Positions 99-62,114 of a stretch of 64,000 nucleotides of DNA are shown here, piece by piece. The stretch spans positions 3,464,383-3,528,382 of the forward strand of contig CBDEVO010000003.1 in assembly GCA_965243615.1 (NCBI GenBank), in the 5' to 3' direction. The translations under genes were made by a program, and so were the position numbers. A model generated the notes under the pieces. The model was given only the letters and a program-made list of their open reading frames with translations. It was not told the DNA's origin and did not search any database. How positions within the stretch are numbered: the stretch's first letter is position 1; the number at the start of each line of letters is the position of its first letter. This DNA comes from Vicinamibacterales bacterium. Its GTDB lineage: Bacteria; Acidobacteriota; Vicinamibacteria; Vicinamibacterales; UBA8438.

Positions 99-126
99 TT
101 GATCAGTGATACATATGTATTATATT
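99..126 (+). promoter_or_regulatory. Putative sigma70 promoter of the lexA-imu operon overlapping a perfect 12-bp palindrome (candidate LexA operator)
   Basis: TTGATC (99-104), 16-bp spacer, TATATT (121-126). ATACATATGTAT (109-120) is self-complementary. AT-rich island about 8 nt before the ATG at 135. Confidence 0.55.
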
Positions 127-134
127 CTCCGGAC

Positions 135-743
135 ATGAGCCAGGCACGGGTGGAGCGGACCCGCGACCGGGTGTTCCGGTTCGTTCGCGACCGGCTGCTC
201 GCCGGCGACCCGCCGACGGTGCGCGAGGTGCAGCAGGTGTTCGGCTTCCGCACGCCGCACACGGCGCGGTACCACCTGGAGAAGCTCGTGGCCGAACGGA
301 AGCTGTCGGCGGCCCGCGGCAAGGCCCGCGGCTATCGCCTGCCGATGGGCGGCGAGCCAGCGGCGCCGGTGGGCTGGGTGCCGCTGCTGGGGCGGGTCGA
401 GGCGGGGCGTCCGGCCGAGGCGGTCGAGGACGTCGAAGGCTACGTTCCGATGCCGGCCGATCGGGCGGGGGCGGGGCTGTTCGCGCTGCGGGTGCAGGGG
501 CGCAGCATGGTGGGGGCCGGCATCCTGCCCGGCGATCTCGTGATCGTGCGGCGCCAGCCGACCGCCGATCCGGGGGCGCTGGTGGTGGCCCTGGTCGACG
601 GCGAGGCGACGGTCAAGCGGCTGCGCCGGCGGGACGGGCGGGTGGAGCTGCACCCGGAGAACCCCGAGTTCGCGCCCATCCGGTCCGACCGGGAGATAAC
701 CCTGCTCGGCAAGGTCGTCGAGGTGCGCCGCACCGTAGGTTGA
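135..743 (+). CDS. lexA: SOS repressor LexA
   Basis: N-terminal wHTH (PPTVREVQQVFGF), Ala-Gly cleavage site (GRVEAG), catalytic Ser (GRSM) and Lys (TVKR); first gene of the imu cassette. Confidence 0.93.
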   Translation: MSQARVERTRDRVFRFVRDRLLAGDPPTVREVQQVFGFRTPHTARYHLEKLVAERKLSAARGKARGYRLPMGGEPAAPVGWVPLLGRVEAGRPAEAVEDVEGYVPMPADRAGAGLFALRVQGRSMVGAGILPGDLVIVRRQPTADPGALVVALVDGEATVKRLRRRDGRVELHPENPEFAPIRSDREITLLGKVVEVRRTVG

Positions 744-755
744 TGGGGATGCGCG

Positions 756-1526
756 ATGGCCCGCGCCGCAACGCTGAAGCTGCCGCCGCGACTGGCGGGG
801 CGCCTGGTGGCGTCCCCGCTCCCGGGTGCGCCCGCCGCCCCGGGGCCGGCCGGCGGGCCGCTCAGGTCGTGGCGTTTCGCGGCCCTGGCCGGGCGGCTGG
901 CCGAGTTGTCGAGCCGGGAGGGGGCGGCGGGGCTGACCCTGGCGTTCTCGCTGGTGCTCGATGCCCAGCGGGCCGGCGAGCCGGTGGGCTGGCTGACGGT
1001 TGACGAGAGCGCCTTCTTCCCCCCCGACGCGGCGCGCGGCGGCGTCGACCTCGACGCCCTCGTCGTTGTCCGGCTGCCGGCGGCCGGGCAGCTCCCGCGC
1101 GCGGCCGAGCACCTGGCGCGCTCGGGCGCCTTCGGCCTCCTCGTGCTCGACCTCGGCGAGGCCGCCCGGGTGCCGGTCCCCATGCAGATGCGCCTGCTCG
1201 GTCTGGCCCGGCAGCACGAGTCGGCGGTGCTGTTCCTGACCCGGAAGGGGGCCGGCGACGCGTCGCTCGGCTCCCTCGTGTCGCTCAGGGCCGAGGCGGG
1301 GCAGGCGCCGGCGGGTCCGGCGGCGGCCGGGGAGGACGCTCCGGGGAGTTCGCCCCGTGCCGAGCCGGCCGGGGGGGCGCCGGCGGGTCCGGCGGCGGCC
1401 GGGGAGGACGCTCCCCGCTACGGGGCCGGCGCCTTCACGTGCACCGCCCGGGTGATCAAGGACAAGCGGGGCGGGCCCGGGTGGAGGCACGTCGAGGTGT
1501 GCCGTGGACCGGATGGCCTGTGTTGA
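756..1526 (+). CDS. imuA: ImuA / RecA-like mutasome accessory protein
   Basis: RecA-like core (FFPPDAARGGVDLDAL, LARSGAFGLLVLD, LGSLVSLR) without a canonical Walker A; lies between lexA and imuB. Confidence 0.85.
   Translation: MARAATLKLPPRLAGRLVASPLPGAPAAPGPAGGPLRSWRFAALAGRLAELSSREGAAGLTLAFSLVLDAQRAGEPVGWLTVDESAFFPPDAARGGVDLDALVVVRLPAAGQLPRAAEHLARSGAFGLLVLDLGEAARVPVPMQMRLLGLARQHESAVLFLTRKGAGDASLGSLVSLRAEAGQAPAGPAAAGEDAPGSSPRAEPAGGAPAGPAAAGEDAPRYGAGAFTCTARVIKDKRGGPGWRHVEVCRGPDGLC
1304..1414 (+). repeat. 39-bp exact direct repeat x2 (period 72) inside imuA
   Basis: GGCGCCGGCGGGTCCGGCGGCGGCCGGGGAGGACGCTCC at 1304-1342 and 1376-1414; encodes APAGPAAAGEDAP twice. Confidence 0.9.
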
Positions 1527-1629
1527 CGCGCCGCCGCCGCAGTTGCCGTTGCCGCTGTCGGAACCGTCGGACGGATCCGGGGTGGAGGCACGTCGAGGTG
1601 TGCCGTGGACCGGATGGCCTGTGTTGACG
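1479..1629 (+). repeat. 50-bp exact direct repeat duplicating the imuA-stop/imuB-start junction (period 101)
   Basis: GGGTGGAGGCACGTCGAGGTGTGCCGTGGACCGGATGGCCTGTGTTGACG at 1479-1528 and 1580-1629. Confidence 0.92.
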
Positions 1630-3215
1630 TGCCGGCGTTGCCCCTCCAGTTGCTGATGCGCCGGCACCCCGCGTGGGCGGCGCACCCGGCGGCGGTGGTC
1701 GACCGCGACCGGCCGCAGGGGGTCGTCGAGTGGGTGAACGAGCCTGCCCGCCGGGCCGGGGTGCTGCCCGGCATGTCGTACGCGACGGGGCTCTCGCTGG
1801 CCGGTGGGCTCCGTGCGGCCGAGGTGCCCCCCGGCGACGTCGCGGCCGGCGTCGATGCGGTCGTCGGCCTGCTCCGGCGGTTCACGCCCGGCGTCGAGCC
1901 GTCCCGCGCCCGTCCCGGCGTGTTCTGGCTCGACGCCTCGGGGCTGCAGCCGCTGTTCGCCTCCCTCGTGGACTGGGGGCGCGGGATATGGGCGCATCTG
2001 CGGGGGGCCGGGTTCCGGGGCCGGGTGGTGGTGGGGTTCACCCGGTTCGGCACGTATGCGCTGGCCAGGAGTCCGTGTCGTGGAACGGTCCGGACTCCTC
2101 GCGGGTTGGTTGGGCGCCAAGCGGAGCCGTCAGGCGACGATTGGCGGGCTGGGGCCGGGGCGGAAGCGGACCGGGGGGAGGGGGACGGTCAGGTGACGGT
2201 GCTCGACGACGCCGCGGCCGAGCGGCGGGCGGCCCGCCGCGTCCCCCTGCGCCGGCTCGACGTCGACCCCGCGCTGCGCGACGCCCTCGACAAGCTCGGG
2301 GTCCGCACCGTCGGGGCGTTCCTGCGGCTGCCGGCCGCCGGCGTCCGCCGGCGCTTCGGCCGCGAGGCGCACCGGCTGCACCGCGAGGCGGCGGGGGACC
2401 TGGCGGTCCCCTTCCAGCCCGCGCCGGCGGTCGAGCCGCTCGCGCGCCGCCTCGACCTCGACGCGCCGGAGACGGGGGTCGAGGGCCTGCTGTTCCGGGT
2501 CAAGCAGGCGCTCGACCCGTTGCTCGGGGTGATGGCGTCGCGGCAGGAGGCGCTGGCCGGCCTCGAGCTCCGCCTGCGGCTGGACGCGCCGGCCACGGCG
2601 CCGCGGGTCGAGCGGGTCGAGCGCATCCGCCCCGCCGCCCCGACCCTCGACGTCCGACAGGTCCTGAACCTCGTGCGACTGCGCGTCGAAGGGCTGGCCC
2701 TGTCCGCCGGGGTGATCGAGATCGGCCTGGCGGTGACGCCGGCGCGGGCGACCCGCGAGCAACTGCGGCTCTTCCAGGAGGGGACCCGGCGCGACCTCCG
2801 GGCCGCAGACCGCGCCGTGGCCCGCGTCAGGGCCGAGTTCGGCGACGGCGCGGTGGTGCGGGCGGCGCTCGCCGACGGCCATCTGCCCGAGGCGGCCTTC
2901 GACTGGCGGCCGCTCGACCACGTCGTGCGCCCGGTCCCCGCCCCGGACGGCGTCCTCTCGTTGGTGCGGCGCTTCTTCGCCGCGCCGCGCCGGATGCCGT
3001 CCCCGCGGCAGCGCGAGCTGGACGGTAGAGTGGCGCCCGGCGCTGGTCCCGGCCGGGCCGGCGGGATGCGCGGGCCCTACGTGGTGGCGGGCGGCTGGTG
3101 GAGGACCCCGATCCACCGCGAGTACTACTTCGCCGGGGCCGGGGGGCGGGCCTGGCGCTGGATCTACTACGACCGCCGCCGCCGGGCCTGGTTCGAGCAG
3201 GGCGCGGTGGAATGA
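1605..3215 (+). CDS. imuB: ImuB, inactive Y-family polymerase-like protein
   Basis: Y-family N-terminus ([22 protein letters not shown]), clamp-binding-like QLRLF, C-terminal [10 protein letters not shown]...REYY motif. Confidence 0.9.
2062..2142 (+). repeat. Copy of the ~80-bp dispersed repeat, in frame inside imuB
   Basis: 62/81 ungapped identity by hand alignment to 22315-22395; similar to units at 21403-21602; internal IR AGGAGTCCG (2067-2075) / CGGACTCCT (2091-2099). Confidence 0.8.
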
Positions 3216-3304
3216 AGCGGCGGTCGCATGGCCGCGGTCGAATGAGCGCAGTGACCCGAGCCGAGGTGGCATGAGCCGGGTGGGAAACGGCCGAGGTGGA
3301 GTAC
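3201..3304 (+). repeat. Four degenerate ~30-bp-period copies of the imuB/dnaE2 junction motif
   Basis: GGCGCGGTGGAATGA (3201), GCCGCGGTCGAATGA (3231), GCCGAGGTGGCATGA (3260), GCCGAGGTGGAGTAC (3290). Confidence 0.7.
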
Positions 3305-6300
3305 GCGCCGCTCTGGTGCAAGAGCAACTACTCGTTTCTGGAAGGCGCCTCCCATCCCGAGGAGCTGGTCGAGCAGGCCCACGCCCTGGGCCTGCGCGGC
3401 CTCGCCCTGACCGACCGGGACGGCGTCTACGGCATCGTGCGCGCCCACGTGCGGGCCCGCGAGCTCGGCGTGCACCTGATCTGCGGGGCCCAGATGTCGC
3501 TGGCGGGCGGGGCGCAGGTGGTGTTGCTGGCCGCCGATCGCGCCGGCTACGCCAACCTCTGCCGGCTCATTACCCTCGGCCGTCTCCGACACGCCAAGGG
3601 CGAGTGCACGGTCACCGCCGACGAGGTCTGCGGGCACGGCGGGGGGCTGCTGGCCCTCTGGCCCGGCGCCCACTGGGCGGCCGAGGCCGACGCCGACCGC
3701 GACCGCCCGGCCCTGGCCGCCCTTCGCGACGCCTTCGGCGACCGGGCCTGCGGGCTGCTGGCCCGCCACCGCCTCGCCGGCGAGGGGCCGCGGGAGGGTT
3801 GGCTGCGGGCGCGGGCCCGGGAGATCGGCCTGCCCCTGGCGGCGGCGACCGAGGTGCTCTACCACGACCCGGCGCGCCGCGATCTCCAGGACGTGCTGAC
3901 CTGCATCCGGCACGGCGTCAGCCTCGCCCGGGCGGGACGGCGCATCCACGCCAACGCCGAGCACGGCCTGAAGTCTCCGGCCGCCGTCGCCGCGCTGTAC
4001 CGCGACGACCCCGCCGCGGTGGCGCGTACGGTCGAGATAGCGGCCCGGTGCCGCTTCTCGCTCGACGCCATCCGCTACCGTTACCCGTCCGAACGCCTGC
4101 CCGACGGCGACACCTCGTCGAGCTGGCTCGCCCGGCTCACCGAGGAGGGGGCGCGCCGTCGCTTCGGCGGCCGAGTACCCGCCGCGTTGCGGACGCAGAT
4201 TGCGAAGGAGCTGGCCCTCATCGACGAGCTCGACTACTGCGGCTACTTCCTCACCATGTGGGAGATCGTCGAGTTCTGCCGCCGCCACGGCATCCTCTGC
4301 CAGGGGCGGGGGTCGGCCGCCAACTCGGCCGTCTGCTACTGCCTCGGCATCACCGCCGTCGACCCCACCCGGGTCGACCTGTTGTTCGAGCGCTTCCTGT
4401 CGCGCGAGCGGGCCGAGCCGCCCGACATCGACCTCGACATCATGCACGAGCGGCGGGAGGAGGTGATTCAGTTCGTCTACGAGAAGTACGGGCGCGACCG
4501 GGCGGCGATGGTCGCCAACGTCGTCCGCTACCGCGCCCGCTCGGCCGTGCGCGAGGTGGGGAAGGCGCTGGGGCTGCCCGAGACCCCGGTCGACCGGCTC
4601 GCCAGGCGGTTGTCCCACTACGACGCCGTCGACGGGGACACGGTGCGGCAGGTGCTGGACGGCGAGGGCCCGGCGGCGGCGCACCTCGTGCGGCTCGCCG
4701 GCGAGATCCGGGACTTCCCCCGCCACCTGTCCATTCACCCCGGCGGCTTTCTCTTGGGCCACGAGCCGGTGCACGACCTGGTGCCGATCGAAAACGCGGC
4801 GATGCCCGGCCGCACCGTGATCCAGTGGGACAAGGAGGACCTGGAGAACCTCGGGCTGTTCAAGGTCGACCTGCTGGGGCTGGGGGCGTTGACCCAGCTC
4901 GACCTGTCGTTCGGGCTGATCGAGCGGCATTACGGCCGCACGCTGTCGATGGCCGCGATCCCGGAGGGGGACGAGGCCACCTACGACATGATCTGCCGCG
5001 GCGACACCGTCGGCGTCTTCCAGATCGAGAGCCGGGCGCAGATGGCGATGCTGCCGCGGCTCAGGCCGCGCAGCTACTACGACCTCGTCATCGAGGTGTC
5101 CATCGTCCGGCCGGGGCCCATCACCGGCGGGATGGTGCACCCGTACCTGCGTCGGCGCAACGGGGAGGAGGCGGTGGCCTACCCCCACCCGTGTCTCGAG
5201 CCGGTGCTCGAGAAGACGCTGGGGGTGCCGCTGTTCCAGGAGCAGGTGATGAAGCTCGCGATGGTCGCCGCCGACTACACCCCCGGCGAGGCGGACCAGT
5301 TGCGGCGCGACATGGCGGCGTGGCGGCGCAGCGGGCGGATAGAGCGTCACCGCGAGCGGCTGGTCGGCAGGATGACGGCCAAGGGCATCGCCCCCGAGTT
5401 CGCCGAGCGGGTGTTCGACCAGATTCGCGGCTTCGGGGACTACGGGTTTCCCGAGAGCCACGCGGCCAGCTTCGCGCTCATCGCCTACGCCACGTCCTGG
5501 CTCCGGCGCCACTATCCCGACGTCTTCACCTGCGCACTGCTCAACGCGCAGCCGATGGGGTTCTACGCGCCGGCCACCATCGTCGACGACGCCCGGCGGC
5601 ACGGCGTCGACGTGCGCCCGGTCGACGTCGCCTGCAGCGACTGGGACTGCACCCTGGAGCCGGCGGGCGAGGCGCCGTCTTCTCCAGCGCCGGTGCCGGT
5701 CGGCGCGGGCGGGTCGACGGGGCCGGCGCGGTCGGACCCGGCCATCGGCGCCCTGCCGCGCCGATCGTCGCCCGACCGCTCCTCGGGGAGTCTGTCCAGG
5801 CGCCGTTCTGCGGGCGCCCAGACCGAGGAGAGCAGGACCCGGGCCGTCGACTCGGGGAGTCTGTCCAGGCGGCGGCGTTCTGCGGGGACGCCCAGGTTCG
5901 CGGTGCGGATGGGGCTGCGGTACGTCAAGGGGTTGTCCGAATCGCGCGACTGGGCCCGCATCGAGGCCGCGCGCGGGCGGGTACGGTTCGGCTCGGTTGC
6001 CGACTTCGTGGCCCGGACCGGCCTCGACGAGCGGGTGGCGGGCCGTCTCGCCGAGGCGGGGGCGCTGGCCGGTCTGGAGCGGCGGCGCCGCGACGCGCTC
6101 TGGCAGGTCCGCGGCCTCGTCCATGCGCGCGCGCCGGTCCTGCCGCCCGGGGCCGCGCGGGACGAGACCCCCGCGTTCGACGACCTGGACCCGGGCGAGA
6201 CCATCGCGTGGGACTACCGCACCAGCGCGCACAGCCCGCGCGGCCATCCCCTCGCCGCCCTGCGGGCGCAGCTCGGGGCCCGGCGCCTTCCCGACGCCCG

Positions 6301-6607
6301 CACCGTCTCGGCGATGCGCGACGGGCGGAAGACGCGCTACGCCGGCCTCGTCATCTGCCGGCAGCGTCCCGGCACCGCGGGCGGGGTCGTGTTCATGACT
6401 CTGGAGGACGAGACCGGGTTCGTGAACCTGGTCGTGTGGAGCCGGGTGTTCGACGCGCATGCGCTGATCGCGAGGACCGCGTCTTTCCTCGGCGTGACCG
6501 GCAGGATTCAGCGGGCGGACGGCGTCGTGCACCTCGTCGCCGACACGTTGTGGCGGCCCGAGCTCGACGCGGGGCCGAACGCGGTCGGCAGCCGGGACTT
6601 CCACTAG
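3296..6607 (+). CDS. dnaE2: Error-prone DNA polymerase III alpha DnaE2 (ImuC)
   Basis: PHP domain ([10 protein letters not shown]), GRGSAANS, catalytic PDIDLD, GFPESHA, OB fold, DnaE2-type C-terminal SRDFH. Confidence 0.97.
5782..5895 (+). repeat. Imperfect ~40-bp direct repeat x2 in the dnaE2 linker
   Basis: CTCGGGGAGTCTGTCCAGGCG...CGTTCTGCGGG at 5782 and 5851; encodes SGSLSRRR(R)SAG twice. Confidence 0.85.
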
Positions 6608-21223: not shown

Positions 21224-21402
21224 CGTCGTCGCTCCTCGCAGGTGTCGAACCGCGTCGCCGAAGTGCACAAATGATACCGCTACCCGCCGCCTCGGCGGGC
21301 AAGGCCGGTCGGCCGGAGGGTGACAAAGGCGCCGCCTTCGGGGCAGCGTGGTGAAGAGGAAGCGACTGCGGCGCGTCCCGGCGCGGACGCCTCGATGTTC
21401 CA

Positions 21403-21602
21403 TTGGGCGGCCATCGGAGCCGACAGGTGACGATTTCCGGGACAGGAGTGTGCGGCGTGCAACGATGCGGATTCCCGCAGGTTGGGCGGTCTTCGGAGCC
21501 GTCAGGCGACGGTTTCCGGGGCAGGAGTGTGCGGCGTGTTGCGACGCGCACTTCTGCAGGTTCGGGTCTGGTGGCCAAGCGGAGCCGCAGGGCACGAATC
21601 CG
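21403..21602 (+). repeat. Tandem array (period 79, ~2.5 units) of the ~80-bp dispersed repeat
   Basis: Units start at 21403 and 21482 (TTGGGCGG..TCGGAGCCG.CAGG.GACG.TTTCCGGG.CAGGAGTGTGCGGCGTG), with a partial third unit at 21568. Confidence 0.85.
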
Positions 21603-21620
21603 CGCTAGAATGGCCGGGCC

Positions 21621-22442
21621 ATGCCCGAACGGATCCACGGTCGGCGGGCCCTGGCGGCGGCGGGGGTCGCCACCGCGGTGGTGATCGGCGCGGTGCTGGG
21701 CGCTGCGGCGCTGGAGGGACGTGCGGGAGTCGGGCAGCAGGACTGGCGGCCGGCGTCCGAGACCTGGCACTGGGTGCTCCCCGCGCAGCACGACGGGGTC
21801 GAAGTGGTCGAGCTGCATCCCGGCGACTGCTACGTGATCCGGCAGGTCGACGGCATGGTGTACTTCGGCGAGCCGCCACCCGACGTCCTCGAACTCCAGG
21901 CCCGGCTCGGCGATCCGATCGTGCATCGCGTCGAGGAGGTCGGCGACCATCCCGAGTGCCGGGAGTGCCTCGCGATGTCGCGGCTGACGCAGGCCATCGT
22001 GAACCGGCTCGTCGAGGCCGGCGACCGGCGCTCCATGCGCCGGGCCAACCACCGGCCGTCGCCCCTCGACGACATGCGGGGCGGCGCGTACACCGACGTG
22101 GGGTCCCCGGATCGCCCGCGCTACCGCCAGACCCGCGAGCAGCGCATGGCGTACCTGCACCTGCAGACCGCCGCACGGGACAACTGCTACGCCGCCCAAG
22201 TGCCGCGGACGCTGACGATTCACATCCGGGACCGGCAGCACCGCCCCGACCGCACCGGGTTCTACAGCGGCTATCTCTATCTGGAACACCACCACGCGCC
22301 GGCCCCGGGGCGGGTGGCCAGGAGTCTGCGCCTTGGAACGGTGCGGTTTCCCGGGGGATTGACTGGGCGGCAGGCGGAACCGCAAGGCGACGCTTTCACG
22401 GCCCGCAACGAGCGCGTTCTATTGGAGGCGAACCACCGATGA
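21621..22442 (+). CDS. Hypothetical exported/membrane-anchored protein
   Basis: N-terminal hydrophobic segment, CRECL motif, -10-like TAGAAT at 21606, ATGA overlap with the next gene. Confidence 0.65.
   Translation: MPERIHGRRALAAAGVATAVVIGAVLGAAALEGRAGVGQQDWRPASETWHWVLPAQHDGVEVVELHPGDCYVIRQVDGMVYFGEPPPDVLELQARLGDPIVHRVEEVGDHPECRECLAMSRLTQAIVNRLVEAGDRRSMRRANHRPSPLDDMRGGAYTDVGSPDRPRYRQTREQRMAYLHLQTAARDNCYAAQVPRTLTIHIRDRQHRPDRTGFYSGYLYLEHHHAPAPGRVARSLRLGTVRFPGGLTGRQAEPQGDAFTARNERVLLEANHR
22315..22395 (+). repeat. Copy of the ~80-bp dispersed repeat, in frame in the 3' end of ORF 21621-22442
   Basis: 62/81 identity to 2062-2142. Confidence 0.8.
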
Positions 22443-23503
22443 AACGACTTCTGATGACCCTCTCCATCGTCGCCCTGGCCGTGTTCGCGGCCCAGTGGCA
22501 GACCCGCGTCGCCGCTCTGCAGAGCCCCGACGGCAGCCCCAGCCACCGCTTCGAGGAGCTCGCCGACGGGGTCTGGTTCGCCATCGCCTCCGGGTCGATG
22601 ACGGTCATGAGCAACTCGCTCGTCATCATCAACGACGACCACGTCATGATCGTCGACACCGCGGTGACCCCCGCCGCCGCGCGCGGGCTCCTCGAGGGCA
22701 TCGCGACCCTGACCGACAAGCCCGTCCGCTACGTCTTCAACACCCACTACCACTTCGACCACGCGCACGGTAACCAGATCTTCGGCGACGACGTGGAGAT
22801 CATCGGCCACGACTTCGTGCGTACGATGCTGTCGTCCGACGTCCTCAGCCAGCGCACCAACCGCTCGTTCACCGAGGTCATCCCCGGCCGGATCGAGCAG
22901 CGGAAGGCGGAGATCGCGGCGACGGAGGACGCGGCGGAGCGGGCGCGGCTGGAGACCCAGCTCCGCATCCAGGAGGCCCACTGGGAGGCCCTGCAGGAGA
23001 CGGTGCCGACCCCCCCGAACCTGACCTACAGCGACACCATGACCCTGGTGAAGGGCGGCCGCGAGGTGCAGCTCCACTTCCCCGGGCCCGGCCACACCGG
23101 CGGCGACACCCTGGTGTTCCTGCCCGAGGAGCGCATCGTGTTCACCGGCGATTTCTTCGTCGGCCGCCCCGGCGGCCACGGCCTGCCCTACATGGGCGAC
23201 GGCTACGTCGAGGAGTGGCCGGCCTCGCTGGACCGGCTGAAGGCGCTGGAGTTCGACGTCATGGTGCCCGGCCACGGCACGCCGTTCACCGAGCGCGAGC
23301 AGATCGACCACCTGCAGGCGTATCTCCGCGACCTGAACCGGCAGGTCAACGACCTGTACGCCGAGGGCGTCTCCGCCCAGAGCGCGGCCCGGCGCGTGGA
23401 CCTCGGCGCCCATACGCAGCACTACGGCCCGAACGCGGCGCGGCCCGACCCGCGCGCGGTCGTACGAATGTACGAGCGGCTGCAGATCAAGTACCCGCGG
23501 TAG
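22439..23503 (+). CDS. Secreted MBL-fold metallo-hydrolase (cyclase-like)
   Basis: NTHYHFDHAHGN, GHTGGD, FTGD, PGHG; signal peptide. Confidence 0.9.
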   Translation: MKRLLMTLSIVALAVFAAQWQTRVAALQSPDGSPSHRFEELADGVWFAIASGSMTVMSNSLVIINDDHVMIVDTAVTPAAARGLLEGIATLTDKPVRYVFNTHYHFDHAHGNQIFGDDVEIIGHDFVRTMLSSDVLSQRTNRSFTEVIPGRIEQRKAEIAATEDAAERARLETQLRIQEAHWEALQETVPTPPNLTYSDTMTLVKGGREVQLHFPGPGHTGGDTLVFLPEERIVFTGDFFVGRPGGHGLPYMGDGYVEEWPASLDRLKALEFDVMVPGHGTPFTEREQIDHLQAYLRDLNRQVNDLYAEGVSAQSAARRVDLGAHTQHYGPNAARPDPRAVVRMYERLQIKYPR

Positions 23504-26603: not shown

Positions 26604-27950
26604 TCATTCGGCCGGGGCGGGCGATTCCAGTCGGGTCTCGAGGTCGGCCGGTACGCGAAAGACATGGGTGCGCCGGCCCATCCGCCGCTGCTCCAGGAGC
26701 CCGAGCTCGGCGAGCCGGAACAGATCGGCGCGGGCCGTCGCGTAGGCGACGTCGTGACTCGTCTGGTGCGACCGGGTCGTGTACTCGGCATCCGGGTGCC
26801 GAACGGCATGGGCCAGCAGCGCGAGCTGGCGGTGGTTCAGGTCGGTCGAACGCTCGATCATGCGCTCGACCCGCTGCACCTGCCGGACCTTGGTTTCGAG
26901 GTACGTGTCGAGCTCGTCGATTGCCCGCCGGATCACGTCCACCTGGTGCACGATGAAATAGGTCAGGTCGTTGCCGTCGGTCTCGGTGTGCAGGAACGCC
27001 CGGGCGTACTGCGCCGGCGCCTTCTTGAGAAAACGGCTGATCGAGATGAACTCGAACGGCCAGTAGCCGTGGCGCAACATTGCCCAGTAGAACAGCGCCC
27101 GGGCCGTGCGGCCGTTGCCGTCCTCGAACGGGTGGTCGAAGGCGAGCCAGAAGTGCAGCAGGATGGCGCGAACGACGGGGTGCATGAAGGCGCCGTCGTC
27201 GGCGTCCCGATTCGCGAACTGCACCATCTGGTCCAGGCGTTCGGGAAGCTGTTCCGCCGGCGGCGGGTGGTACAGCACCTGGTCGTCTGCGTCGCCCACC
27301 TCGACGCGGTCGTCCTCCGGCCGCTGCAGACGCCCGGCTGCGGCCGGGTCGCGTAGCGTGTCTGCCGTCAGCGTGACGTGCAGGGTCAGGACTGCGTCGG
27401 CGGTCAGCGGCGACTCCCTCATCGTGCGGATCGCCTGCATGGCCCGGTAGTTGTTCAGGATCATCCGTTCGCTGCGGTCCCGGGGGCGTCGTCCGGATCG
27501 GATCATCCTGGTCGCGGCGGCCCTCGTCGTGGAGGCGCCCTCGAGCTGGCTCGACGTGATGGCCTCGTCGATCAGCGAGTCGACGATGAACCGGTCCCGG
27601 GTCTGCCGGTTGACCACCGTGTCGGCCGTTCCAATCCGCCCGCCGGCCCGGCTGTCGATCCGGTGCAGCGCCTCCTGGACGGGGTCGGGCAGCATGAAGC
27701 GGAACGGCCGTCCGCGCGCGTCGCGCAACGGGACCCGGCGGGACAGGCCGCTCCGGGACAGCCTGATGCCCGTCCACCACTCTTCGCAGCTCAGGTTTGG
27801 GGGCGGGTCGAGCCGGCGCAGCGTGTCCCAGTGGAGATAGCGGCCGTCCACGATCGGGCGGAAGACGTGGTCCATCAACAACGTCGGCAGGCGATCGCGG
27901 TGCCTGTGGAGCAGCTTATCGAGGGGCAACGGCGAGCGTGGTCGCTTCAC
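26604..27950 (-). CDS. Fic-family protein with C-terminal wHTH
   Basis: HPFEDGNGRTAR Fic motif, SSQLEGA inhibitory-helix motif, C-terminal ATARADLFRLAELGLL; start approximate. Confidence 0.9.
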   Translation of the reverse strand: MKRPRSPLPLDKLLHRHRDRLPTLLMDHVFRPIVDGRYLHWDTLRRLDPPPNLSCEEWWTGIRLSRSGLSRRVPLRDARGRPFRFMLPDPVQEALHRIDSRAGGRIGTADTVVNRQTRDRFIVDSLIDEAITSSQLEGASTTRAAATRMIRSGRRPRDRSERMILNNYRAMQAIRTMRESPLTADAVLTLHVTLTADTLRDPAAAGRLQRPEDDRVEVGDADDQVLYHPPPAEQLPERLDQMVQFANRDADDGAFMHPVVRAILLHFWLAFDHPFEDGNGRTARALFYWAMLRHGYWPFEFISISRFLKKAPAQYARAFLHTETDGNDLTYFIVHQVDVIRRAIDELDTYLETKVRQVQRVERMIERSTDLNHRQLALLAHAVRHPDAEYTTRSHQTSHDVAYATARADLFRLAELGLLEQRRMGRRTHVFRVPADLETRLESPAPAE

Positions 27951-28020
27951 GAGTGCATCTCTGGCCTGAGGCGTAGCGGCACTGCCCGCGGTGAACCGGC
28001 ACTGCAACGGCGCAACGACC

Positions 28021-33159: not shown

Positions 33160-33423
33160 CTACTCCAGGTCGTTTTGGCGATCCAGCGGGTCGCCCGCCC
33201 GGTCGAATCCACGCATCTCGTCCACGGACAGCTCGATATCCCGAGCGATCTTTCGGAGTAGTGACGGTGCGATGTCGCGGCCCTTGTGGAACGGAACCGT
33301 CGTCACTCTTCCGTCGGGGTGTCGAAATCGCTTGTGAGAACCGTGCTGCCGCACGTCCCGAAAGCCGAGCCGATCGAGCAACGACGCGACCTCGCGAGGC
33401 TTGAGGACCGGAGGCTTGGCCAT
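33160..33423 (-). CDS. hicA: HicA-family mRNA interferase toxin
   Basis: LDRLGFRDVRQHGSHKRFRHPDGRVTTVPFH (GSH motif). Confidence 0.9.
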   Translation of the reverse strand: MAKPPVLKPREVASLLDRLGFRDVRQHGSHKRFRHPDGRVTTVPFHKGRDIAPSLLRKIARDIELSVDEMRGFDRAGDPLDRQNDLE

Positions 33424-33429
33424 GGTCGC

Positions 33430-33963
33430 CTACTTCCTGCGCGCAGGCTTGGATGGTGCCATCCGGCTTATCGTCTCCGCCACCTGATTCGTCGCAGCCA
33501 CCTGACTCCGCAACTCCGCGGTGGTCCTGGACGTGGCTTTCACGAGTTGCTCGAGGAGATCCGGCAGCTTGCCCAGCGCTTGGATGCGATATGAGCGCGG
33601 GGCGTCATTGAACCGCCAGGCTTCTGTCTCCATGGGTGCGTCCTCGTCGAGCGGGCCTGAGCGTGTGCGGATCGCGATTCCCCATGCTCTTGAGACTTTG
33701 GCGTATCCGATCGAGCGGTCCCAGAAGTACCCAGCCTCGACGCTGAGTTCTCCTGCGAACTCTGCCCAGGCCGACACCCCCAGATTCAGCTTCTGCAGAG
33801 TCGCCTCGATGGCGGCGATGGGTTTGGCGATTTCGTCGGAGACGGCGTTCAGCTCGGTCGCGGACGCGACGAGCTTCTCGAACGCTGTCGAGACGCGCTC
33901 GCGTAGCGGATCGTGTTGTGAAGATTGAGGTACGGGGTCCGAGACAGACTTCGAGGCAGGCAT
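33430..33963 (-). CDS. Hypothetical protein with N- and C-terminal helical/coiled-coil segments
   Basis: RBS AAGGAG, 177 aa, ends 6 bp before hicA. Confidence 0.75.
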   Translation of the reverse strand: MPASKSVSDPVPQSSQHDPLRERVSTAFEKLVASATELNAVSDEIAKPIAAIEATLQKLNLGVSAWAEFAGELSVEAGYFWDRSIGYAKVSRAWGIAIRTRSGPLDEDAPMETEAWRFNDAPRSYRIQALGKLPDLLEQLVKATSRTTAELRSQVAATNQVAETISRMAPSKPARRK

Positions 33964-33974
33964 CACATGCTCCT

Positions 33975-34095
33975 TGACCCGACAGGCCGGGCAGTGCGGC
34001 ACGTACGGTGCCGGTTGTAGATCAACCGCCGGTCAGGCGGCAGGCTGGAGAGATCGGCTTCCGCCGACGCCAGCCAAGCTGGCTTCCAACCGTAT
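33975..34095 (-). ncRNA. Candidate structured leader/ncRNA
   Basis: Three-way junction (34043-34091) with a GGAA tetraloop followed by further hairpins; extended -10 TGcTACGAT at 34109-34101. Confidence 0.45.
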
Positions 34096-35056: not shown

Positions 35057-35449
35057 TCACTGGCCGGCCGGCCAGTGCTGGACGCTGATCTCCGTCATGG
35101 GGAAGTCATCGACGTTCGCCGTTGCCAGAGCCGCGTTGACGCCGGCCGCTGCCGCCGCAATCAGGCAGTCGGCCTGGTGCAGCGTGACTCCACGCCGGGC
35201 AAAGGTCTGGCGCCACGCTCCCGCTCGTATTCCCTCGGCGACTCCCAGCGGCGCGAGTCGCAGGCCGTTGAACAGGCGGCGCGCGATCGTCTCTTCGCCC
35301 ACGCGCAGGCCGCGCCAGATCTCCTCGACGGAGATCACGCACGCCCACGGCTCCGTGCCGGTCCGTCGCAGGGCAGCCAGACGGGCCGCGGCGGGCCGGC
35401 CGCGGAGCGCGTCGATGAGCACGGTCGAATCGAGCAGCAGTCGCGCCAT
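35057..35449 (-). CDS. vapC: VapC PIN-domain toxin
   Basis: LLDSTVLID, ADCLIAAAA, LATANVDDF. Confidence 0.9.
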   Translation of the reverse strand: MARLLLDSTVLIDALRGRPAAARLAALRRTGTEPWACVISVEEIWRGLRVGEETIARRLFNGLRLAPLGVAEGIRAGAWRQTFARRGVTLHQADCLIAAAAAGVNAALATANVDDFPMTEISVQHWPAGQ

Positions 35450-53331: not shown

Positions 53332-54387
53332 TCACTCCACGATGACGACGCCCCACGGGCGCACGCCGACCTCCACCCTCGCGACGACCTCGAGGGTCTC
53401 GGTGTCGACGACCGAGACGTCGTTCCCGGGGCCGTTCGCGGTGTAGAGATAACGCCCGTCCGGGCTGAGGTCGATGCCCCACGGCCGCTCGCCGACCTCC
53501 ACCTGCGTGATCGGCTCGTTGGTGGCGGTGTCGATGACCGCCACCGTGCGCCCGCGGCCGGTCGAGACGTAGAGCCGCGACCCGTCGGGCGAGACCTTGG
53601 CGTCCATCGGCCGCACCAGCTCACCGGTCAGCTCGATGGTCGCGATGACGGAGTGGTCGGCGGTGTCGACGACCGACACCGTGCTCCCGTTCTCGGCCGT
53701 GACGTAGCCGCGGGTGCTGTCGGGCAGGAAGGCGGACGAGCGCGGCCGGGCCCCGACGTCGAACACCGCCGCGACCTCGTGCGACTCGGTGTCGATGACC
53801 GAGACCTGGTTGTCGTTCTCCGACGTGACGTAGACCCAGCGGCCGTCGGGGCTGCGGGTCACGCCCTCGGGCTCGCCCCCGACCGGGAGCTGGGCGAGGA
53901 TCTCGCCGCTCTCGATGTCGACGATGCTCGCGAGCGCCGCGTCCTCGTTGGCGACGAAGACCCGGGTGCCGTCGAGGCTCACCGCCACCTGCTCGGGGTC
54001 GGTGCCCGCGTTCAGCACGTTCACCACCCGTCCCTCGGCGATGTCCACGATGCCGATGCCGTCGGCCGAGCGGTCGGGCGGGGGCAGCGTCGACAGGTCG
54101 GTCCCCGGCGGGGCCGGCGGCGAGCCGCTGAGGGCGACGAAGAGGCGCTCGCCGGCCGGATCGACCTTGATGCCCCGCGGGCGCTGGCCGAGGGGGATGG
54201 TCGCCATCACCTCGTGGGTGCCGCCCGCGATGACCGTCAGGTCGCCCGAGGTCTCGTTGGTGACGAACGCGCGGTACGGCGGGGGAGCCGCCGCCTCCTC
54301 CATCGGCGGGTCCGCGGCGGGCTCGGCGCCGCCGCAGGCGTTCAGGAGCAGGGGGATGGCGAGCGCGCGAATGTCCAGGTATCTCAT
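53332..54387 (-). CDS. YVTN/YncE beta-propeller lipoprotein
   Basis: Lipobox LLNAC; FVTN/FVAN/YVTS/YVTA repeats. Confidence 0.88.
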   Translation of the reverse strand: MRYLDIRALAIPLLLNACGGAEPAADPPMEEAAAPPPYRAFVTNETSGDLTVIAGGTHEVMATIPLGQRPRGIKVDPAGERLFVALSGSPPAPPGTDLSTLPPPDRSADGIGIVDIAEGRVVNVLNAGTDPEQVAVSLDGTRVFVANEDAALASIVDIESGEILAQLPVGGEPEGVTRSPDGRWVYVTSENDNQVSVIDTESHEVAAVFDVGARPRSSAFLPDSTRGYVTAENGSTVSVVDTADHSVIATIELTGELVRPMDAKVSPDGSRLYVSTGRGRTVAVIDTATNEPITQVEVGERPWGIDLSPDGRYLYTANGPGNDVSVVDTETLEVVARVEVGVRPWGVVIVE

Positions 54388-58023: not shown

Positions 58024-59379
58024 CTACACGGTCAGCGGCTCGAGGGGAAGCCGCCCCGTGCTGTCGCCCAACTGCTCGGGCTCGACGACCCCCGCCTTGT
58101 CCAGCATCGCCAGCAGCAGGTTGGTCATCGGGGTGTCGCTCGGGTAGCGCACGTGGCGCCCGCCCTTCAACTGCCCGGCTCCGCCGCCGGCGAGAATCAG
58201 CGGCAGGTCGATGTGCGAGTGCTGGTCGCCGTCGCTGATGCCGCCGCCGTAGAGGATGAGGGACTGGTCGAGCAGCGACCCGTCGCCGTCCTGGGTCGCG
58301 TGCAGCGACTGCAGGAACCCGGAGAGCAGATCCACGTGGTACGTGTTGATCTTGGCGTACTGCTCGAGCCGGCCGGGGTCGAGCTGGTGGTGCGACACCG
58401 AGTGGTGCGCGTCGGGCACGCCGACCTCGGGGTAGCTCTGGGCGGTCTGCTCGCGGCCGATCAGGTACGTGAACACGCGGGTCACGTCGGCCTGGAACGC
58501 GAGCCGCTGGAGGTCGAACATGAGCCGGGCGTGCTCGGTGAACGAGTCGGGAATGCCCACCGGCCGCGCGAGGTTCTCGGGCAGGTCGCCGTCGCCGGCC
58601 TGCGCCTCGACCCGCTGGATGCGGCGCTCGATCTCGCGGACGGCGTCGAGGTACTGGTGCGCCCGCCGCCGGTCGCCGGCCCCGAGGCGCTTCTCGAGCC
58701 GGGCCATGTCGTCGCGCACCGCGTCGAGGATGCTGCGGTCCTCGCGCAGGCGCGCCACGCGCTCGGCGGTGGTGCCGCCCTCGCCGAACAGCCGCTCGAA
58801 CACCACGCGCGGGTTGTGCTCCATGGGCAGGGGGGTGGTCGGCGTCCGCCACGCGATGGTGTTGGTGTAGACGCAACTGTAGCCGTTGTCGCAGTTGCCG
58901 ACCACGTAGCTGTTCTCGAGCGAGATCTCGAGCGACGGGAGCGGGGTCTCCTGACCGAGCCTCGCCGCCGCGATCTGGTCGGCGGTGGTGCCGGCGCGGA
59001 CGTCCGCGCCCTCGGTGCGCTTGGGGTGCACGCCGTTCAGCCAGACCCCGCTCGCCCGCGAGTGCTCGCCGTTGCCGTCGCCCCAGGCCTCGGCCTGTCG
59101 GTGGGCGAGGCCGGTGGGGATGACCACGTGGTCCTTGACGGGGGCCAGCGGGCTCAGGATCGGCGACAGCTCCAGGGGGCCGTCGGTGGTTGGCGTCCAC
59201 TGCGACATGTTGGCCCCGTTCGGGATGTAGATGAAGCCGAGCCGCTTCGTCGGGCGCGCCGCGGTGCGGGCGAGCGCGGTGGCCGCGGGCACCATGGCGT
59301 CGAGCAGGGGCAGGGCGAGCGCGGCGCCGGCGCCTCGGAGAAACGTGCGGCGGGGCAGCGACATCTTCGTGATGATCAT
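58024..59379 (-). CDS. DUF1552 domain protein (Tat substrate)
   Basis: RRTFLRGAGAALALPLLDAM, DQIAA, HHSVSHH, HSH.DLP. Confidence 0.9.
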   Translation of the reverse strand: MIITKMSLPRRTFLRGAGAALALPLLDAMVPAATALARTAARPTKRLGFIYIPNGANMSQWTPTTDGPLELSPILSPLAPVKDHVVIPTGLAHRQAEAWGDGNGEHSRASGVWLNGVHPKRTEGADVRAGTTADQIAAARLGQETPLPSLEISLENSYVVGNCDNGYSCVYTNTIAWRTPTTPLPMEHNPRVVFERLFGEGGTTAERVARLREDRSILDAVRDDMARLEKRLGAGDRRRAHQYLDAVREIERRIQRVEAQAGDGDLPENLARPVGIPDSFTEHARLMFDLQRLAFQADVTRVFTYLIGREQTAQSYPEVGVPDAHHSVSHHQLDPGRLEQYAKINTYHVDLLSGFLQSLHATQDGDGSLLDQSLILYGGGISDGDQHSHIDLPLILAGGGAGQLKGGRHVRYPSDTPMTNLLLAMLDKAGVVEPEQLGDSTGRLPLEPLTV

Positions 59380-61751
59380 GACTCCGTGCTCCTCATCCGG
59401 AACGGGGGGCTCTCGACGACGCCCAGGATGAGCGTCGTCAGGCGGTAGCCGTCGTCGGCCGCCGCGCGGGTGATGGCGCGGACGGCCGGCGCGTCGTAGT
59501 GCTCCACGCCGCGGCCGATGGCATAGGTCAGCAGCTTCTCGGTGACGGTGGTGACGAAGCGCTCGGGGTGGGCGAGCAGCGCCGCCTTCAGCCCGGCCGG
59601 CCCGTCGAAGACGGTGCCGTCGGGCAGCACCCCGGTCAGGTCCATCGGGACCCGGGTCTGGTTCGGGGTGCGCCGGCGGCCGATGGCGTCGAACGGCTCG
59701 AGGGCGAGGCCCAGGGGGTCCATCACCCGGTGGCAGCTCGCGCACACCGGGTTGGCCCGGTGCTGCTCCATCGCTTCGCGCATGGTCAGGGAGCGGCCGG
59801 TGGTGGTGGCCTCAAGGGCCGGGACGTCCGCGGGGGGCGGCGGGGGCGGCGTGCCGAGGATGTTCTCGAGCACCCACTTGCCCCGCACCACCGGCGACGT
59901 GCGGTTGGCGTGCGAGGTCACGGTCAGGATGCTGCCGTGGCCGAGCAGCCCGCCCCGCCCCGGATCGTCGAGGGCGACCCGCCGGAAGTGGCTGCCCCGC
60001 ACGCCGGGGATGCCGTAGTGCACCGCGAGCCGCTCGTTGAGGAACGTGTAGTCGGCCGAGAGCAGCTCGACGACGCTGCGGTCCTCGCGCAGGATGGCGT
60101 CGAAGAGCATCTCCGTTTCGCGACGGAAACCCTGCCGCAGGTCCTCCCCGAAGTCGGGGAAGAGGTCCTCGTCGGGCTGCACCGCGGCGGCGTTGCGCAG
60201 GCTGAGCCACTGGCCCGCGAAGTTGGTGACGAGGGCCTGCGCCCGCGGGTCGGCGAGCATGCGCCGGGTCTGGGCCTCGAGCACGACGGGGTCGCGCAGC
60301 TCGCCGCGGACGGCGGCGTCGAGGAGCTCGTCGTCGGGGATGCTGCTCCACAGGAAGAACGACAGGCGCGAGGCCAGCTCCAGGTCGGCGAGCTCGTAGG
60401 CGGCGCCGGGCGGCAGGCCCGCGGGGTCCTCGACGATGCGGAACAGGAACTCGGGGCTGACGAGCAGGCGCCGCAGGGCGAGCTCGATGCCGCCGTCGAA
60501 CCCGCCCGTCGCCACGCCCCGCTCGTAGAAGTCGAGCAGCCGGTCGACGTCGTCGCCGGTGACGGGCCGGCGGAACGCGCGCCGGGCGAGGCCCGACAGG
60601 ATGCCGGCGGCGCACGCGGCGGCCGAGTCGGCGTCGTTGCCCGGTTCGCAGGTGAAGATGCGCGCCCGGCTCGGCGTGTCGACGAGGGGGCGCGTGCCCC
60701 GCGACTCGAACGGGCCGGCGATGGTGAGCCGCTCGAGATACGGCTGGTAGCGGGAGTCGGCGCCCGACCCTTCGCCGGTGAACGGCCGCTTGTACAGCTT
60801 GCGCGTGCGCTCCGGCTCGGCCAGCGTCTTGCGCAGGAAGGCGGCCCCGACGCGGTGGGGGCCGGCGCTCACCCGCAGGCGGACCTCTCGCGCGTCCGCC
60901 TCGGCGTACTGGCTGCGGCGCTGGCCCGGCTCGAGGGCCCGCCCGACCGTGAAGACCTCGAGGCGCTCGCCGTCCAGGGTCAGCTCAAGCTGGTGGGGCT
61001 CGATGAAGAGGGGGCCGTCGGGGACGACCGAGATGACGTACTCGGCGTCCTCGGGGAAGTTGAAGTCGAGGACCATGCCTCCGCGGGTGCCGAACGGGAG
61101 CCCCGCGACGTGGCCGTCCTGCCCCTGGTCGGAGGGGACCCGGAACGTCTCGGCGATCGGCGACGGCACGGGCGACCCGACGGCGAGCCGGCTGATCTTC
61201 CTCGCCGCCGCGAGATACCGCTCCATGAGGGTCGGCGAAACCCCCAGCACCCCGGCGATGTTGTCGAAGCCGTAGCTGGTGTCGTCGGCCGGCAGGAGGT
61301 CGCTCACGTCGACGTCGAGGTCGAGGAGGTCCCGGACGACGTTGCGGTACTCGGCGCGGCTGAGCCGGTGCAGCGCCTCGGTCCGCCCCGGCCGCAGGTC
61401 GGCCGCGGCGGCGCGGTCGAGCTCGGTCTCGAGCCACGCGCGGAAGCCGTCGTAGGCCGCCGGCTCGGGCCGGGGCCGCGGCTGCGGCGGCATCGCCCCG
61501 GCCCGCAGCTTGGCGACCACCTTCTCCCAGACCGCGGCGTCGCCGGCGACGTTCGCCAAGTCCATCGACTCGAGCGACAGCCCGCCGGTCTCGAGCCGGT
61601 CGTTGTGGCAGGCGACGCAGTAGCGGTCGAGGAGTTGGCCGTGGCCGTCGGCAGGTGTGCCGGACCGTCCCGCGGCCGGCTGCCCGGCGCCCGCCGTCGC
61701 GCAGATCAGCGCGGTCCCGACGGCGGCGCCGATGACCCGGAATCCAGACAT
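59376..61751 (-). CDS. Planctomycete-type cytochrome c / DUF1587-1595-1592-1588-1585 protein
   Basis: CVACH, HRLSRAEY.N, LASRLSFFLWSS.PD, TSPVVRGKW, CASCH. Confidence 0.92.
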   Translation of the reverse strand: MSGFRVIGAAVGTALICATAGAGQPAAGRSGTPADGHGQLLDRYCVACHNDRLETGGLSLESMDLANVAGDAAVWEKVVAKLRAGAMPPQPRPRPEPAAYDGFRAWLETELDRAAAADLRPGRTEALHRLSRAEYRNVVRDLLDLDVDVSDLLPADDTSYGFDNIAGVLGVSPTLMERYLAAARKISRLAVGSPVPSPIAETFRVPSDQGQDGHVAGLPFGTRGGMVLDFNFPEDAEYVISVVPDGPLFIEPHQLELTLDGERLEVFTVGRALEPGQRRSQYAEADAREVRLRVSAGPHRVGAAFLRKTLAEPERTRKLYKRPFTGEGSGADSRYQPYLERLTIAGPFESRGTRPLVDTPSRARIFTCEPGNDADSAAACAAGILSGLARRAFRRPVTGDDVDRLLDFYERGVATGGFDGGIELALRRLLVSPEFLFRIVEDPAGLPPGAAYELADLELASRLSFFLWSSIPDDELLDAAVRGELRDPVVLEAQTRRMLADPRAQALVTNFAGQWLSLRNAAAVQPDEDLFPDFGEDLRQGFRRETEMLFDAILREDRSVVELLSADYTFLNERLAVHYGIPGVRGSHFRRVALDDPGRGGLLGHGSILTVTSHANRTSPVVRGKWVLENILGTPPPPPPADVPALEATTTGRSLTMREAMEQHRANPVCASCHRVMDPLGLALEPFDAIGRRRTPNQTRVPMDLTGVLPDGTVFDGPAGLKAALLAHPERFVTTVTEKLLTYAIGRGVEHYDAPAVRAITRAAADDGYRLTTLILGVVESPPFRMRSTES

Positions 61752-62114
61752 GGACCGTGGTTCCTTTCGTTGGAACGAGCTGCGGGTGCACACTGCGATA
61801 GCGTATTTTGGGCCTTGGGCGCGCGGGGTGTCAATTCGGACAGCAGCTTCGCGACGCCGGTCGGACGATTCTCGGGATCGGGGAGCTACGGGCTCATGGA
61901 CGTCCGCGACCGGTTGGACGACCCCGGACGCGAACCGTCCGACAGGCAGGGCGGCGATGCAGGGCCGGTCGGCGGTAAGCGTGTATCCTGACGGTTGTCG
62001 GCGCGAGCGCAGGGCGCCGCGCCCGGTGGGGTTGTTGACAGGAGCGGCGCGAGTCGGTAACAACGCACGTAACGCGAGGCGCGCCGCCCCGCGTCCGGAA
62101 CGCGTGAGGCACAC

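Follow-up and report, generated by a model that had tools for sequence, protein, structure and literature searches.

A dispersed 84-nt repeat with two hairpins, inserted in frame in imuB and other genes of Vicinamibacteria

The stretch of DNA analyzed here (the window) comprises 64,000 nt from the genome of a Vicinamibacterales bacterium (GCA_965243615.1, contig CBDEVO010000003.1, positions 3,464,383-3,528,382, forward strand) and has a G+C content of ~71%. It contains several copies of a short repeat, two of which are translated as parts of proteins. The first of these lies in imuB (1605-3215, + strand), whose homologues are named ImuB or DNA polymerase Y family; judged by these names, the imuB product is the Y-family polymerase-like subunit of the SOS mutasome. 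The second lies in a gene for a conserved hypothetical protein of 273 amino acids (aa; 21621-22442, +), which was defined by its translation, its homologues and their alignment. The remaining copies form an array directly upstream of the latter gene. ImuB is encoded within a complete SOS mutagenesis cassette lexA-imuA'-imuB-dnaE2 (99-6607, +), in which lexA (99-743, +), imuA' (RecA-like; 756-1526, +) and dnaE2 (3296-6607, +) were recognized by their Pfam matches. The window ImuB itself has no Pfam match at E <= 1e-4; note that many ImuB homologues of ~505-510 aa have a PF00817 entry, which the longer ones (at least ~528 aa, lengths in keeping with extra units) often lack. The hypothetical gene ends with a TGA that shares bases with the start codon of the following gene (ATGA, 22439-22442), which encodes a protein of the metallo-beta-lactamase fold (22439-23503, +; Pfam Lactamase_B, E = 2.9e-24). 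Both open reading frames (ORFs) that host the repeat are real genes.

The imuB copy is a single 84-nt unit (2067-2150, +) corresponding to 28 aa (residues ~155-182). The copy in the hypothetical gene (22320-22403, +) is also a single 84-nt unit; it encodes ARSLRLGTVRFPGGLTGRQAEPQGDAFT and sits 13 codons before the stop of the gene. A profile built from four copies matched these units at 2066-2148 (E = 4.8e-21) and 22319-22401 (E = 4.5e-21), respectively. Altogether this search of the window gave five matches with E values from 4.5e-21 to 1.7e-10, the next best match having E = 0.044. The other three matches (21366-21443, 21443-21521 and 21522-21607) are the approximately three degenerate units of the intergenic head-to-tail array (21366-21607, +), in which Tandem Repeats Finder identified 2.0 copies with a period of 79 and 82% matches at 21403-21562. 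Furthermore, a degenerate core pattern of the repeat matches the window four times (0.10 matches expected), a value that was reached by none of 100 shuffled sequences.

An initial annotation of this DNA, made from its sequence, had aligned 2062-2142 with 22315-22395, and this observation is confirmed: the alignment is gapless with 62 of 81 nt identical, and the peptides quoted for the two segments are present in the translations of imuB (P0001) and of the hypothetical gene (P0002, ARSLRLGTVRFPGGLTGRQAEPQGD). The repeat described there as ~80 bp long is real, but its true unit has 84 nt and consists of two hairpin modules. Similarly, the intergenic tandem array placed at 21403-21602 exists, but extends further on both sides according to the profile. 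The statement that all copies are on the + strand is correct for the five copies of the window; outside the window, however, loci on both strands were found.

The imuB copy is a true insertion. Among 8000 scored candidates, 2556 were ImuB homologues at E <= 1e-10, of which 120 were listed and 21 aligned. Orthologues with an empty site could be found at 83-88% identity: P0021, P0022, P0027 and P0039 read ..ALAR|AGAEA.. at the position in question, and the window ImuB has exactly 28 residues more. P0004, P0006 and P0008 contain about two tandem units. At a second ImuB site, P0006, P0030, P0031, P0032, P0034 and P0038 carry a 28-aa segment that is the element read on the reverse strand. One imuB gene from another Vicinamibacterales assembly/species (L064, 3-1550) could be inspected at the DNA level; it contains three reverse-strand units in frame, namely a tandem pair in the linker and a single unit at the second site, and nothing is inserted at the position occupied in the window. 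Across relatives, ImuB thus carries the element at three separate sites and in both orientations, and the lengths of the 120 listed homologues fall into classes ~28 aa apart (505-510, 528-539, 553-561, 570-588 and 599-634 aa). The segment is not conserved in distant ImuB proteins.

The insert of the window ImuB lies in a variable linker of low model confidence. In an AlphaFold model, residues 145-203, the insert included, have pLDDT values below 50 and no secondary structure, which hints weakly that the insert may be disordered, the model being of moderate quality overall (mean pLDDT 64, pTM 0.33, 21-sequence alignment). Apart from the element, the ImuB alignment contains a third variable segment of ~24-28 aa near the C-terminus (..GGAGRDSAPAAADRD..; alignment columns 585-608), which is present in P0024, P0030, P0031, P0032, P0034 and P0038. 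None of the element's six frames yields this GGAGRDSAPAAADRD segment, which may derive from a different repeat. In addition, the linker of P0031, P0032 and P0034 contains local duplications of native sequence.

The copy in the hypothetical gene is a true insertion as well. Of 119 homologues of this protein, 18 were aligned. Six empty orthologues (P0141, P0142, P0144, P0145, P0147 and P0149) read ..PGRV|ASNER.. or a close variant, and the window protein is longer than these by exactly 28 residues, whereas P0128, P0129 and P0133 have 56 extra residues, corresponding to two tandem units. The insert is placed in the C-terminal tail of the protein. The 13 codons that follow it are retained; they overlap the ATGA junction with the next gene and the ribosome-binding site of the latter (GGAGG upstream of the ATG at 22439).

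The initial annotation had concluded that a small repeat family donates peptide segments to proteins. This inference is supported in all parts that could be tested: close orthologues of both hosts lack the segment and differ by 28 aa, and the outcome named there as refuting it, an absence of further copies together with a segment shared by distant ImuB proteins, did not occur in either respect. Most copies are extragenic, however, and their translation is exceptional. When two tandem units in the window frame were used as a peptide query against a collection of 5.8 billion proteins, 29 of 555 candidates carried the peptide at E <= 1. In the 24 matches outside ImuB and the hypothetical protein, the peptide was N-terminal in 13, C-terminal in 7 and internal in 4 (a CYTH protein, an aconitase-family protein, an HsdM methylase and a family-22 glycosyltransferase). 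Of 1.84 billion cluster representatives, nine match the peptide at E <= 0.001, so that it is rare among them; two of these nine are long repetitive proteins with 31-40% identity and may be unrelated. In another case (L045), a reverse-strand copy separates the domains of a DUF1587/DUF1592-type protein. It follows that the element is indeed translated, but not often.

The family itself is large. A scan of the genome collection with the core pattern listed at least 109 matching stretches, and at least 108 of them are in assemblies titled Vicinamibacterales, Vicinamibacteria, Vicinamibacteraceae or Acidobacteria; the sole listed record outside these titles (L055) was discarded as a chance match without a profile hit. 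Among the matches listed, about 31 assemblies are represented (counted by isolate names), and 26 loci belong to a single chromosome, OZ251506.1. When the profile was iterated over the loci and the window, 188 matches were obtained, 116 of them full length. No match was found in the plasmid collection (blastn, distant mode). The initial annotation called the family undescribed, and we also found no description of it in the literature, subscription journals being outside the coverage. As far as seen, the family is confined to Vicinamibacteria (Acidobacteriota). Three linker variants of the unit, 17 units in all, occur only on OZ251506.1, where they are scattered over ~0.2-5.0 Mb. That these variants are private to one chromosome points to amplification in this lineage and argues for mobility.

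Loci with several copies are arrays on one strand, with a canonical spacing of 84 nt (82 and 109 nt also being seen) and with up to five units (e.g., L054). In L054 (810-1453), a tRNA gene (1380-1453, -) is followed by a same-strand array of five units, which are stop-free in all six frames. Opposite-strand copies within one region were found only at L021 and L022, where they flank genes resembling those for RiPP precursors. At this place (L021, 499-1948, and L022), arrays of the element in opposite orientations lie between and on either side of two small genes, each with a leader region resembling nitrile hydratase and a tail rich in Cys, Ser and Thr. By sequence, these genes look like precursors of NHLP-type RiPPs, and the ORF upstream presumably resembles a precursor-binding protein. 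A RAYT gene between these inverted copies was considered and dismissed, as the genes located there look like such precursors and not like transposases.

Fragments of five transposase families (IS110-type DEDD, DDE_3, Tn5-like, DDE_Tnp_1_4 and Mutator) abut copies of the element; they are found at L076 (3-983), L006 (2-853), L018 (2-832), L062 (2-871) and L011 (2-493). Insertion sequences are known to land in or beside REPs, and those found here may have landed in or beside the repeats in the same way. As mobilizers of the element they were rejected, for they belong to five unrelated families and none is a consistent partner.

The anatomy of the element was derived from an alignment of 112 distinct units. 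The unit of 84 nt, or 28 codons, comprises two modules, A and B. Module A (~35 nt) is a near-perfect palindrome of 14 bp whose base includes a YAG word (the base before AG being C or T) and whose loop is TAGAA in 37 and TGGAA in another 37 units. Module B (~49 nt) is an irregular hairpin ending with GGGC-YAG. The six pairs of its outer stem vary freely by compensating changes (e.g., pair 63-90 is C-G in 90 and G-C in 18 units), its inner stem CGGAGCC/GGCGACG hardly changes, with a tandem G.A/A.G in 111 of the 112 units, and its loop has the form GNNA (GTCA in 49, GCAA in 29 and GCCA in 11 units). The modules are separable, as some copies directly following a TAG consist of B only and additional A hairpins can occur after B; each module is bounded by YAG. 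Terminal inverted repeats are absent: in the alignment, the ends of the unit are not complementary.

Both hairpins covary. The 25 proposed pairs are formed in 94.3% of cells, compared to 31-45% in slid controls, and changes on both sides occur in 15 of the pairs; the observed values were reached by none of 500 shuffles. Among the pairs, G.U is much more frequent than A.C (183 vs 47), which indicates that the top strand is the constrained one. As single-stranded DNA, the canonical copy is predicted to fold with -30.8 kcal/mol (z = -6.0), compared to -25.5 kcal/mol for the other strand. RNAalifold recovered hairpin B but not hairpin A, whose 3' strand was paired with the linker instead; we keep our own structure of hairpin A, because 92.5% of cells are paired in helix 1 and folds of single sequences predict it. 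The imuB copy is still predicted to form both hairpins as single-stranded DNA (A at ~2067-2099 and B at ~2115-2146, both +; z = -2.55). The 9-bp inverted repeat that the initial annotation mentioned for this copy is present, but constitutes only the base of a longer hairpin. The copy in the hypothetical gene is decayed and its fold is lost (z = +0.62).

The position of the element relative to genes was classified for 82 arrays or solo copies, using loci with 900-nt flanks in which genes were called by codon-position G+C. Most copies lie outside genes, at their 3' ends. The upstream gene is co-oriented with the element in 52 cases and opposite in 11, and no upstream gene was called in 19. In 17 of the 82 cases the upstream stop codon is a TAG at the first bases of the unit, in nine it is the in-phase TAG of loop A, and in 17 the palindromic CTAG at the 3' end of the unit contains the stop codon of a convergent downstream gene. 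Eleven copies are inside long ORFs, mostly before the first Pfam domain; the majority of them are likely to be upstream copies swallowed by over-long ORFs.

A short word recurs at the junction with the flank. Of 98 solo or first units, 52 have C and 40 have T in front of AG, so that YAG is present in 92, and the three bases preceding it tend to be G, G and C; the resulting flank consensus G-G-C-Y mimics the 3' end of the element. The hairpin foot reads CCAG in 31, CTAG in 15, GTAG in 15 and GCAG in 11 of the 112 units. A TAG on the left is combined with TAG (8), GAG (7) or CAG (7) on the right. Within individual copies, the YAG words of the two sides do not correspond, so that a target duplication, which the initial annotation had proposed to look for, is absent. 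The orientation bias with respect to the upstream gene can be explained by the fact that TAG stop codons lie on the coding strand, and no RNA function is needed for that.

The same word bears on the reading frame. In both window insertions the unit comes after ..GCCAG, read in the codon phase G-GCC-AG, and the reverse-strand pair of L064 has the same phase if read in the orientation of the element. The frames differ considerably in their content of stop codons: copies with stops make up 8 of 107 in the window frame, 10 in the reverse frame used at the second ImuB site and 15 in the third forward frame, compared to 35 and 44 in the other two reverse frames and 71 in the frame reading YAG as a codon (frame 0). 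The two most stop-free frames, one per strand, are thus those of the verified coding insertions. The initial annotation had emphasized that the repeat is translated in the same frame in two proteins. This is correct for the two window copies, but the reverse-strand copies inside the ImuB proteins of relatives are read in other frames. The shared frame results from the insertion word, its usual codon phase and the purging of stop-bearing frames, and is a by-product rather than a property of the element.

The element is very probably a mobile repeat family with true in-frame insertions, as orthologous sites are filled or empty and carry 0, 1 or 2 units. The fuller statement that it is a non-autonomous, REP- or RPE-like mobile repeat of 84 nt, which is handled as folded single-stranded DNA, is the explanation that we favour and regard as likely. 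In the mechanism proposed, the top strand would fold as single-stranded DNA and would be cut and joined in trans by an enzyme encoded elsewhere, the preferred candidate being a HuH-Y1 enzyme (RAYT / class 3 TnpA-like). The unit would enter just 3' of a YAG word resembling its own 3' end, without target duplication. Since each unit would recreate the YAG word, further units could be added head to tail, giving rise to arrays of variable copy number. Insertions behind TAG stops would be harmless and hence would dominate, whereas insertions in genes would survive selection only if they hit a loop or tail that tolerates them, are read in a frame free of stops and have a length of 3n; both window copies fit this description. 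The HuH-Y1 candidate is favoured because the plan of module A is that of a 'double-foot' REP and the plan of module B, judged by eye, resembles that of class 3 hairpins; that such an enzyme moves the element is plausible, but we would stop short of calling it probable.

Several known systems invite comparison. Rickettsia palindromic elements (RPE), which were reportedly described by Ogata et al. in 2000, are said to be palindromic repeats lying in frame within genes, and the initial annotation had named them as a parallel. The repeats of Vicinamibacteria are likewise small, dispersed and palindromic, lie in frame in conserved genes whose orthologues lack the segment, and have no adjacent transposase. 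They differ from RPE in host phylum and base composition (~71% G+C), as well as in being two-hairpin composites of exactly 28 codons that form head-to-tail arrays and are mostly extragenic at stops; the likeness is one of behaviour. In mycobacteria, operons contain direct tandem repeats with units of 40-100 bp, the mycobacterial interspersed repetitive units (MIRU-VNTR). Like the element described here, they are oriented with transcription, their unit ends overlap stop and start codons, and their copy number varies; unlike them, the element has strong covarying hairpins, many solo copies at unrelated loci and copies inside conserved coding sequence. MITE features, i.e. terminal inverted repeats and target-site duplications, are not present.

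The closest parallels are in the REP literature. RPE-4 and RPE-6 have been classed as CGTC-tagged REPs, and in-frame REP insertions, both GTAG- and CGTC-tagged, are known in many bacteria (PMC3733652), including REPs inserted in frame within RAYT genes (PMC6006769). REP, BIME and REPIN elements are associated with RAYT (TnpA-REP) proteins (PMC2817692, PMC3116915, PMC6006769). Our element shares with them a short imperfect palindrome with a conserved foot word (YAG in this case, with GTAG in 15 of 112 units), numerous copies at the 3' ends of genes or within operons between the genes, subfamilies restricted to lineages, and insertions in frame; module A is similar to the long REPs with a 'double foot' that are described for subclass 2.4 (PMC6006769). 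It differs from REPs in lacking the GT[AG]G foot, in its head-to-tail units instead of inverted pairs, in the additional, unrelated hairpin B, and in that neither the window nor the flanks of 80 loci yielded a RAYT, whole genomes not having been searched. Module B can be compared to the hairpins that flank class 3 HuH-Y1 (TnpA-Y1) genes of Solibacter, Planctomyces and Legionella and combine a GTNA loop with an internal loop of 2x2 (Quentin et al. 2018, PMC6006769). For Solibacter, an acidobacterium, about 600 copies of a hairpin of this class 3 type are reported (PMC6006769), a high copy number that is a further parallel. By eye, both are short and G+C-rich, have a 2x2 purine internal loop and a 4-nt loop (GTNA/GNNA) and share the words C-n-G-A-G-C-C and GCGACG. 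However, the published CnGA precedes the hairpin, whereas CGGA is here within the inner stem, and the two cannot be aligned throughout. The element works like a REP or RPE, and we do not claim its membership in either group. The in-frame behaviour of repeats is not new; new are the two-module unit of 28 codons, the direct arrays, also within coding sequence, the YAG ends at stop codons and the host clade.

A number of observations weigh against the favoured explanation. No HuH/Y1 transposase was detected in the 43 ORFs of the window or in 139 ORFs within 900 nt of the copies (80 loci), whole genomes not being included in this search, and five of the 139 flanking ORFs carry transposase domains of unrelated type. 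In the window, where the initial annotation had also seen no transposase, none of the 43 ORFs possesses any transposase domain in a Pfam scan. The arrays are head-to-tail direct repeats and not the inverted pairs of BIMEs or REPINs, and the foot is YAG, with the strict GTAG restricted to 15 of the 112 units. The orientation of the element does not correlate with local GC skew (39 of 74 loci positive, p = 0.73; a crude measure based on 1.8-kb flanks), and thus a replication-strand bias of the kind known for IS608-type elements was not shown. The likeness of hairpin B to class 3 hairpins was judged by eye on a supplementary table, and the junctions at the nucleotide level rest on one distant empty site (L064) together with protein alignments. 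Furthermore, the homology of the flank to the element's end could represent either the target or a remnant, and the G.U excess fits a constraint on RNA equally well.

The last point leads to the possibility that the element is primarily a functional structured RNA of 3' untranslated or intercistronic regions (e.g., a stabilizer of mRNA 3' ends, a processing or termination signal, or a protein-binding site), which spread secondarily and whose coding copies are accidental. The covariation of both stems is compatible with this, as are the excess of G.U over A.C (183 vs 47) on the strand co-oriented with the upstream gene, the orientation following this gene (52 vs 11), and the fact that, in about 31 species-level assemblies, hairpin B hardly varies in its loop and inner stem; moreover, enterobacterial REPs stabilize upstream mRNA, a role that is named in PMC3733652. 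We nevertheless consider a primary RNA function improbable. No relevant Rfam match was obtained: there were none in the whole window at the gathering score, only two weak ones, both outside the units, in 21300-22500 at E <= 10, and only the tRNA beside the L054 array and a sub-threshold match to a small RNA in three canonical loci at E <= 1. Hairpin A is not followed by a U-tract, as read directly from the sequence. The orientation bias is explained by insertion after TAG stops, reverse-strand copies persist inside ImuB, the genome-private subfamilies indicate proliferation and not conserved sites, and the second coding copy of the window has no fold. If, on the other hand, the repeat is mobile, it may be moved by an enzyme other than HuH-Y1, namely an IS110-type enzyme, a DDE transposase in trans, or a site-specific recombinase of the tyrosine or serine type, for which the substrate would be a small circle. 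Another recombinase class is a live rival to HuH-Y1, albeit one that we regard as rather unlikely. The resemblance of the target to the element's end recalls site-specific recombination between like sites, head-to-tail arrays would suit such a process, no Y1 gene was seen in the window or the flanking ORFs, and an IS110-family fragment (L076) and four DDE-type fragments (L006, L011, L018, L062) adjoin copies. Yet these five neighbours represent five families without a consistent partner among them, the lack of terminal inverted repeats and of target duplication argues against DDE enzymes, and the strand-asymmetric constraint on the hairpins fits better to single-strand processing.

Two further explanations were weighed. 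An ordinary minisatellite, changing by slippage or unequal recombination at a few ancient loci, would be in line with copy numbers that vary per site (0, 1 or 2 units in the hypothetical protein, 1 or ~2 in ImuB) and with arrays of up to five units (L054), but it is contradicted by dispersed solo copies: at least 108 separate loci have unrelated flanks and precise unit boundaries, empty sites contain no partial unit, and the three variant subfamilies are dispersed over one chromosome. We therefore regard it as very improbable. The similar peptides read in the same frame in both window proteins might also reflect a true motif or domain that these two proteins share. This idea is practically untenable and already refuted by the absence of the segment from close orthologues of both proteins. 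Besides, most copies are non-coding, relatives have reverse-strand copies in other frames, the likeness exists at the DNA level and extends to non-coding arrays, and the segment is predicted to be disordered. Returning to the mobile repeat handled as folded single-stranded DNA, a more far-reaching version can be formulated, which we consider doubtful: the family might be the high-copy substrate of an unstudied class 3 HuH-Y1 single-stranded DNA enzyme of Acidobacteria, shaped for life inside genes, with a length of exactly 28 codons, its two most stop-free frames in use and YAG ends that offer stop codons to neighbouring genes in both directions, and acting as a linker cassette of variable copy number that remodels proteins such as ImuB.

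Other features of the window touch the element only marginally or not at all. A tandem repeat of 126 nt (53346-53590; 2.0 copies, 74% matches) is unrelated to the 84-nt element and is located in a region with long ORFs on both strands. Pfam matches identify a Fic/DOC-domain gene (26604-28007), a HicA-toxin-domain gene (33160-34002), which adjoins an ORF of 190 aa without Pfam match, and a PIN-domain gene (35057-35449); these Fic/DOC, HicA and PIN genes are possible toxin-antitoxin loci. A large protein of the DUF1587/DUF1592/DUF1595 ('PSD') type with cytochrome c motifs is encoded at 59376-63392. Similar proteins are found at L045, L059 and L065, and proteins of this type recur beside copies of the element or as their hosts.

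If the favoured explanation is true, Vicinamibacteria, which are abundant but little-cultured soil bacteria, carry their own REP-like element of unusually clean anatomy. The element would then be a tractable substrate for finding out what mobilizes atypical REPs, a question left by the CGTC-tagged REPs (PMC3733652) and by the class 3 HuH enzymes (PMC6006769). It also explains false N-terminal extensions and missed Pfam matches in these high-G+C genomes, as well as the length polymorphism of orthologues in steps of 28 aa. Finally, the ImuB proteins with different numbers of units provide a natural series of variants with which the tolerance of the mutasome to insertions could be gauged.

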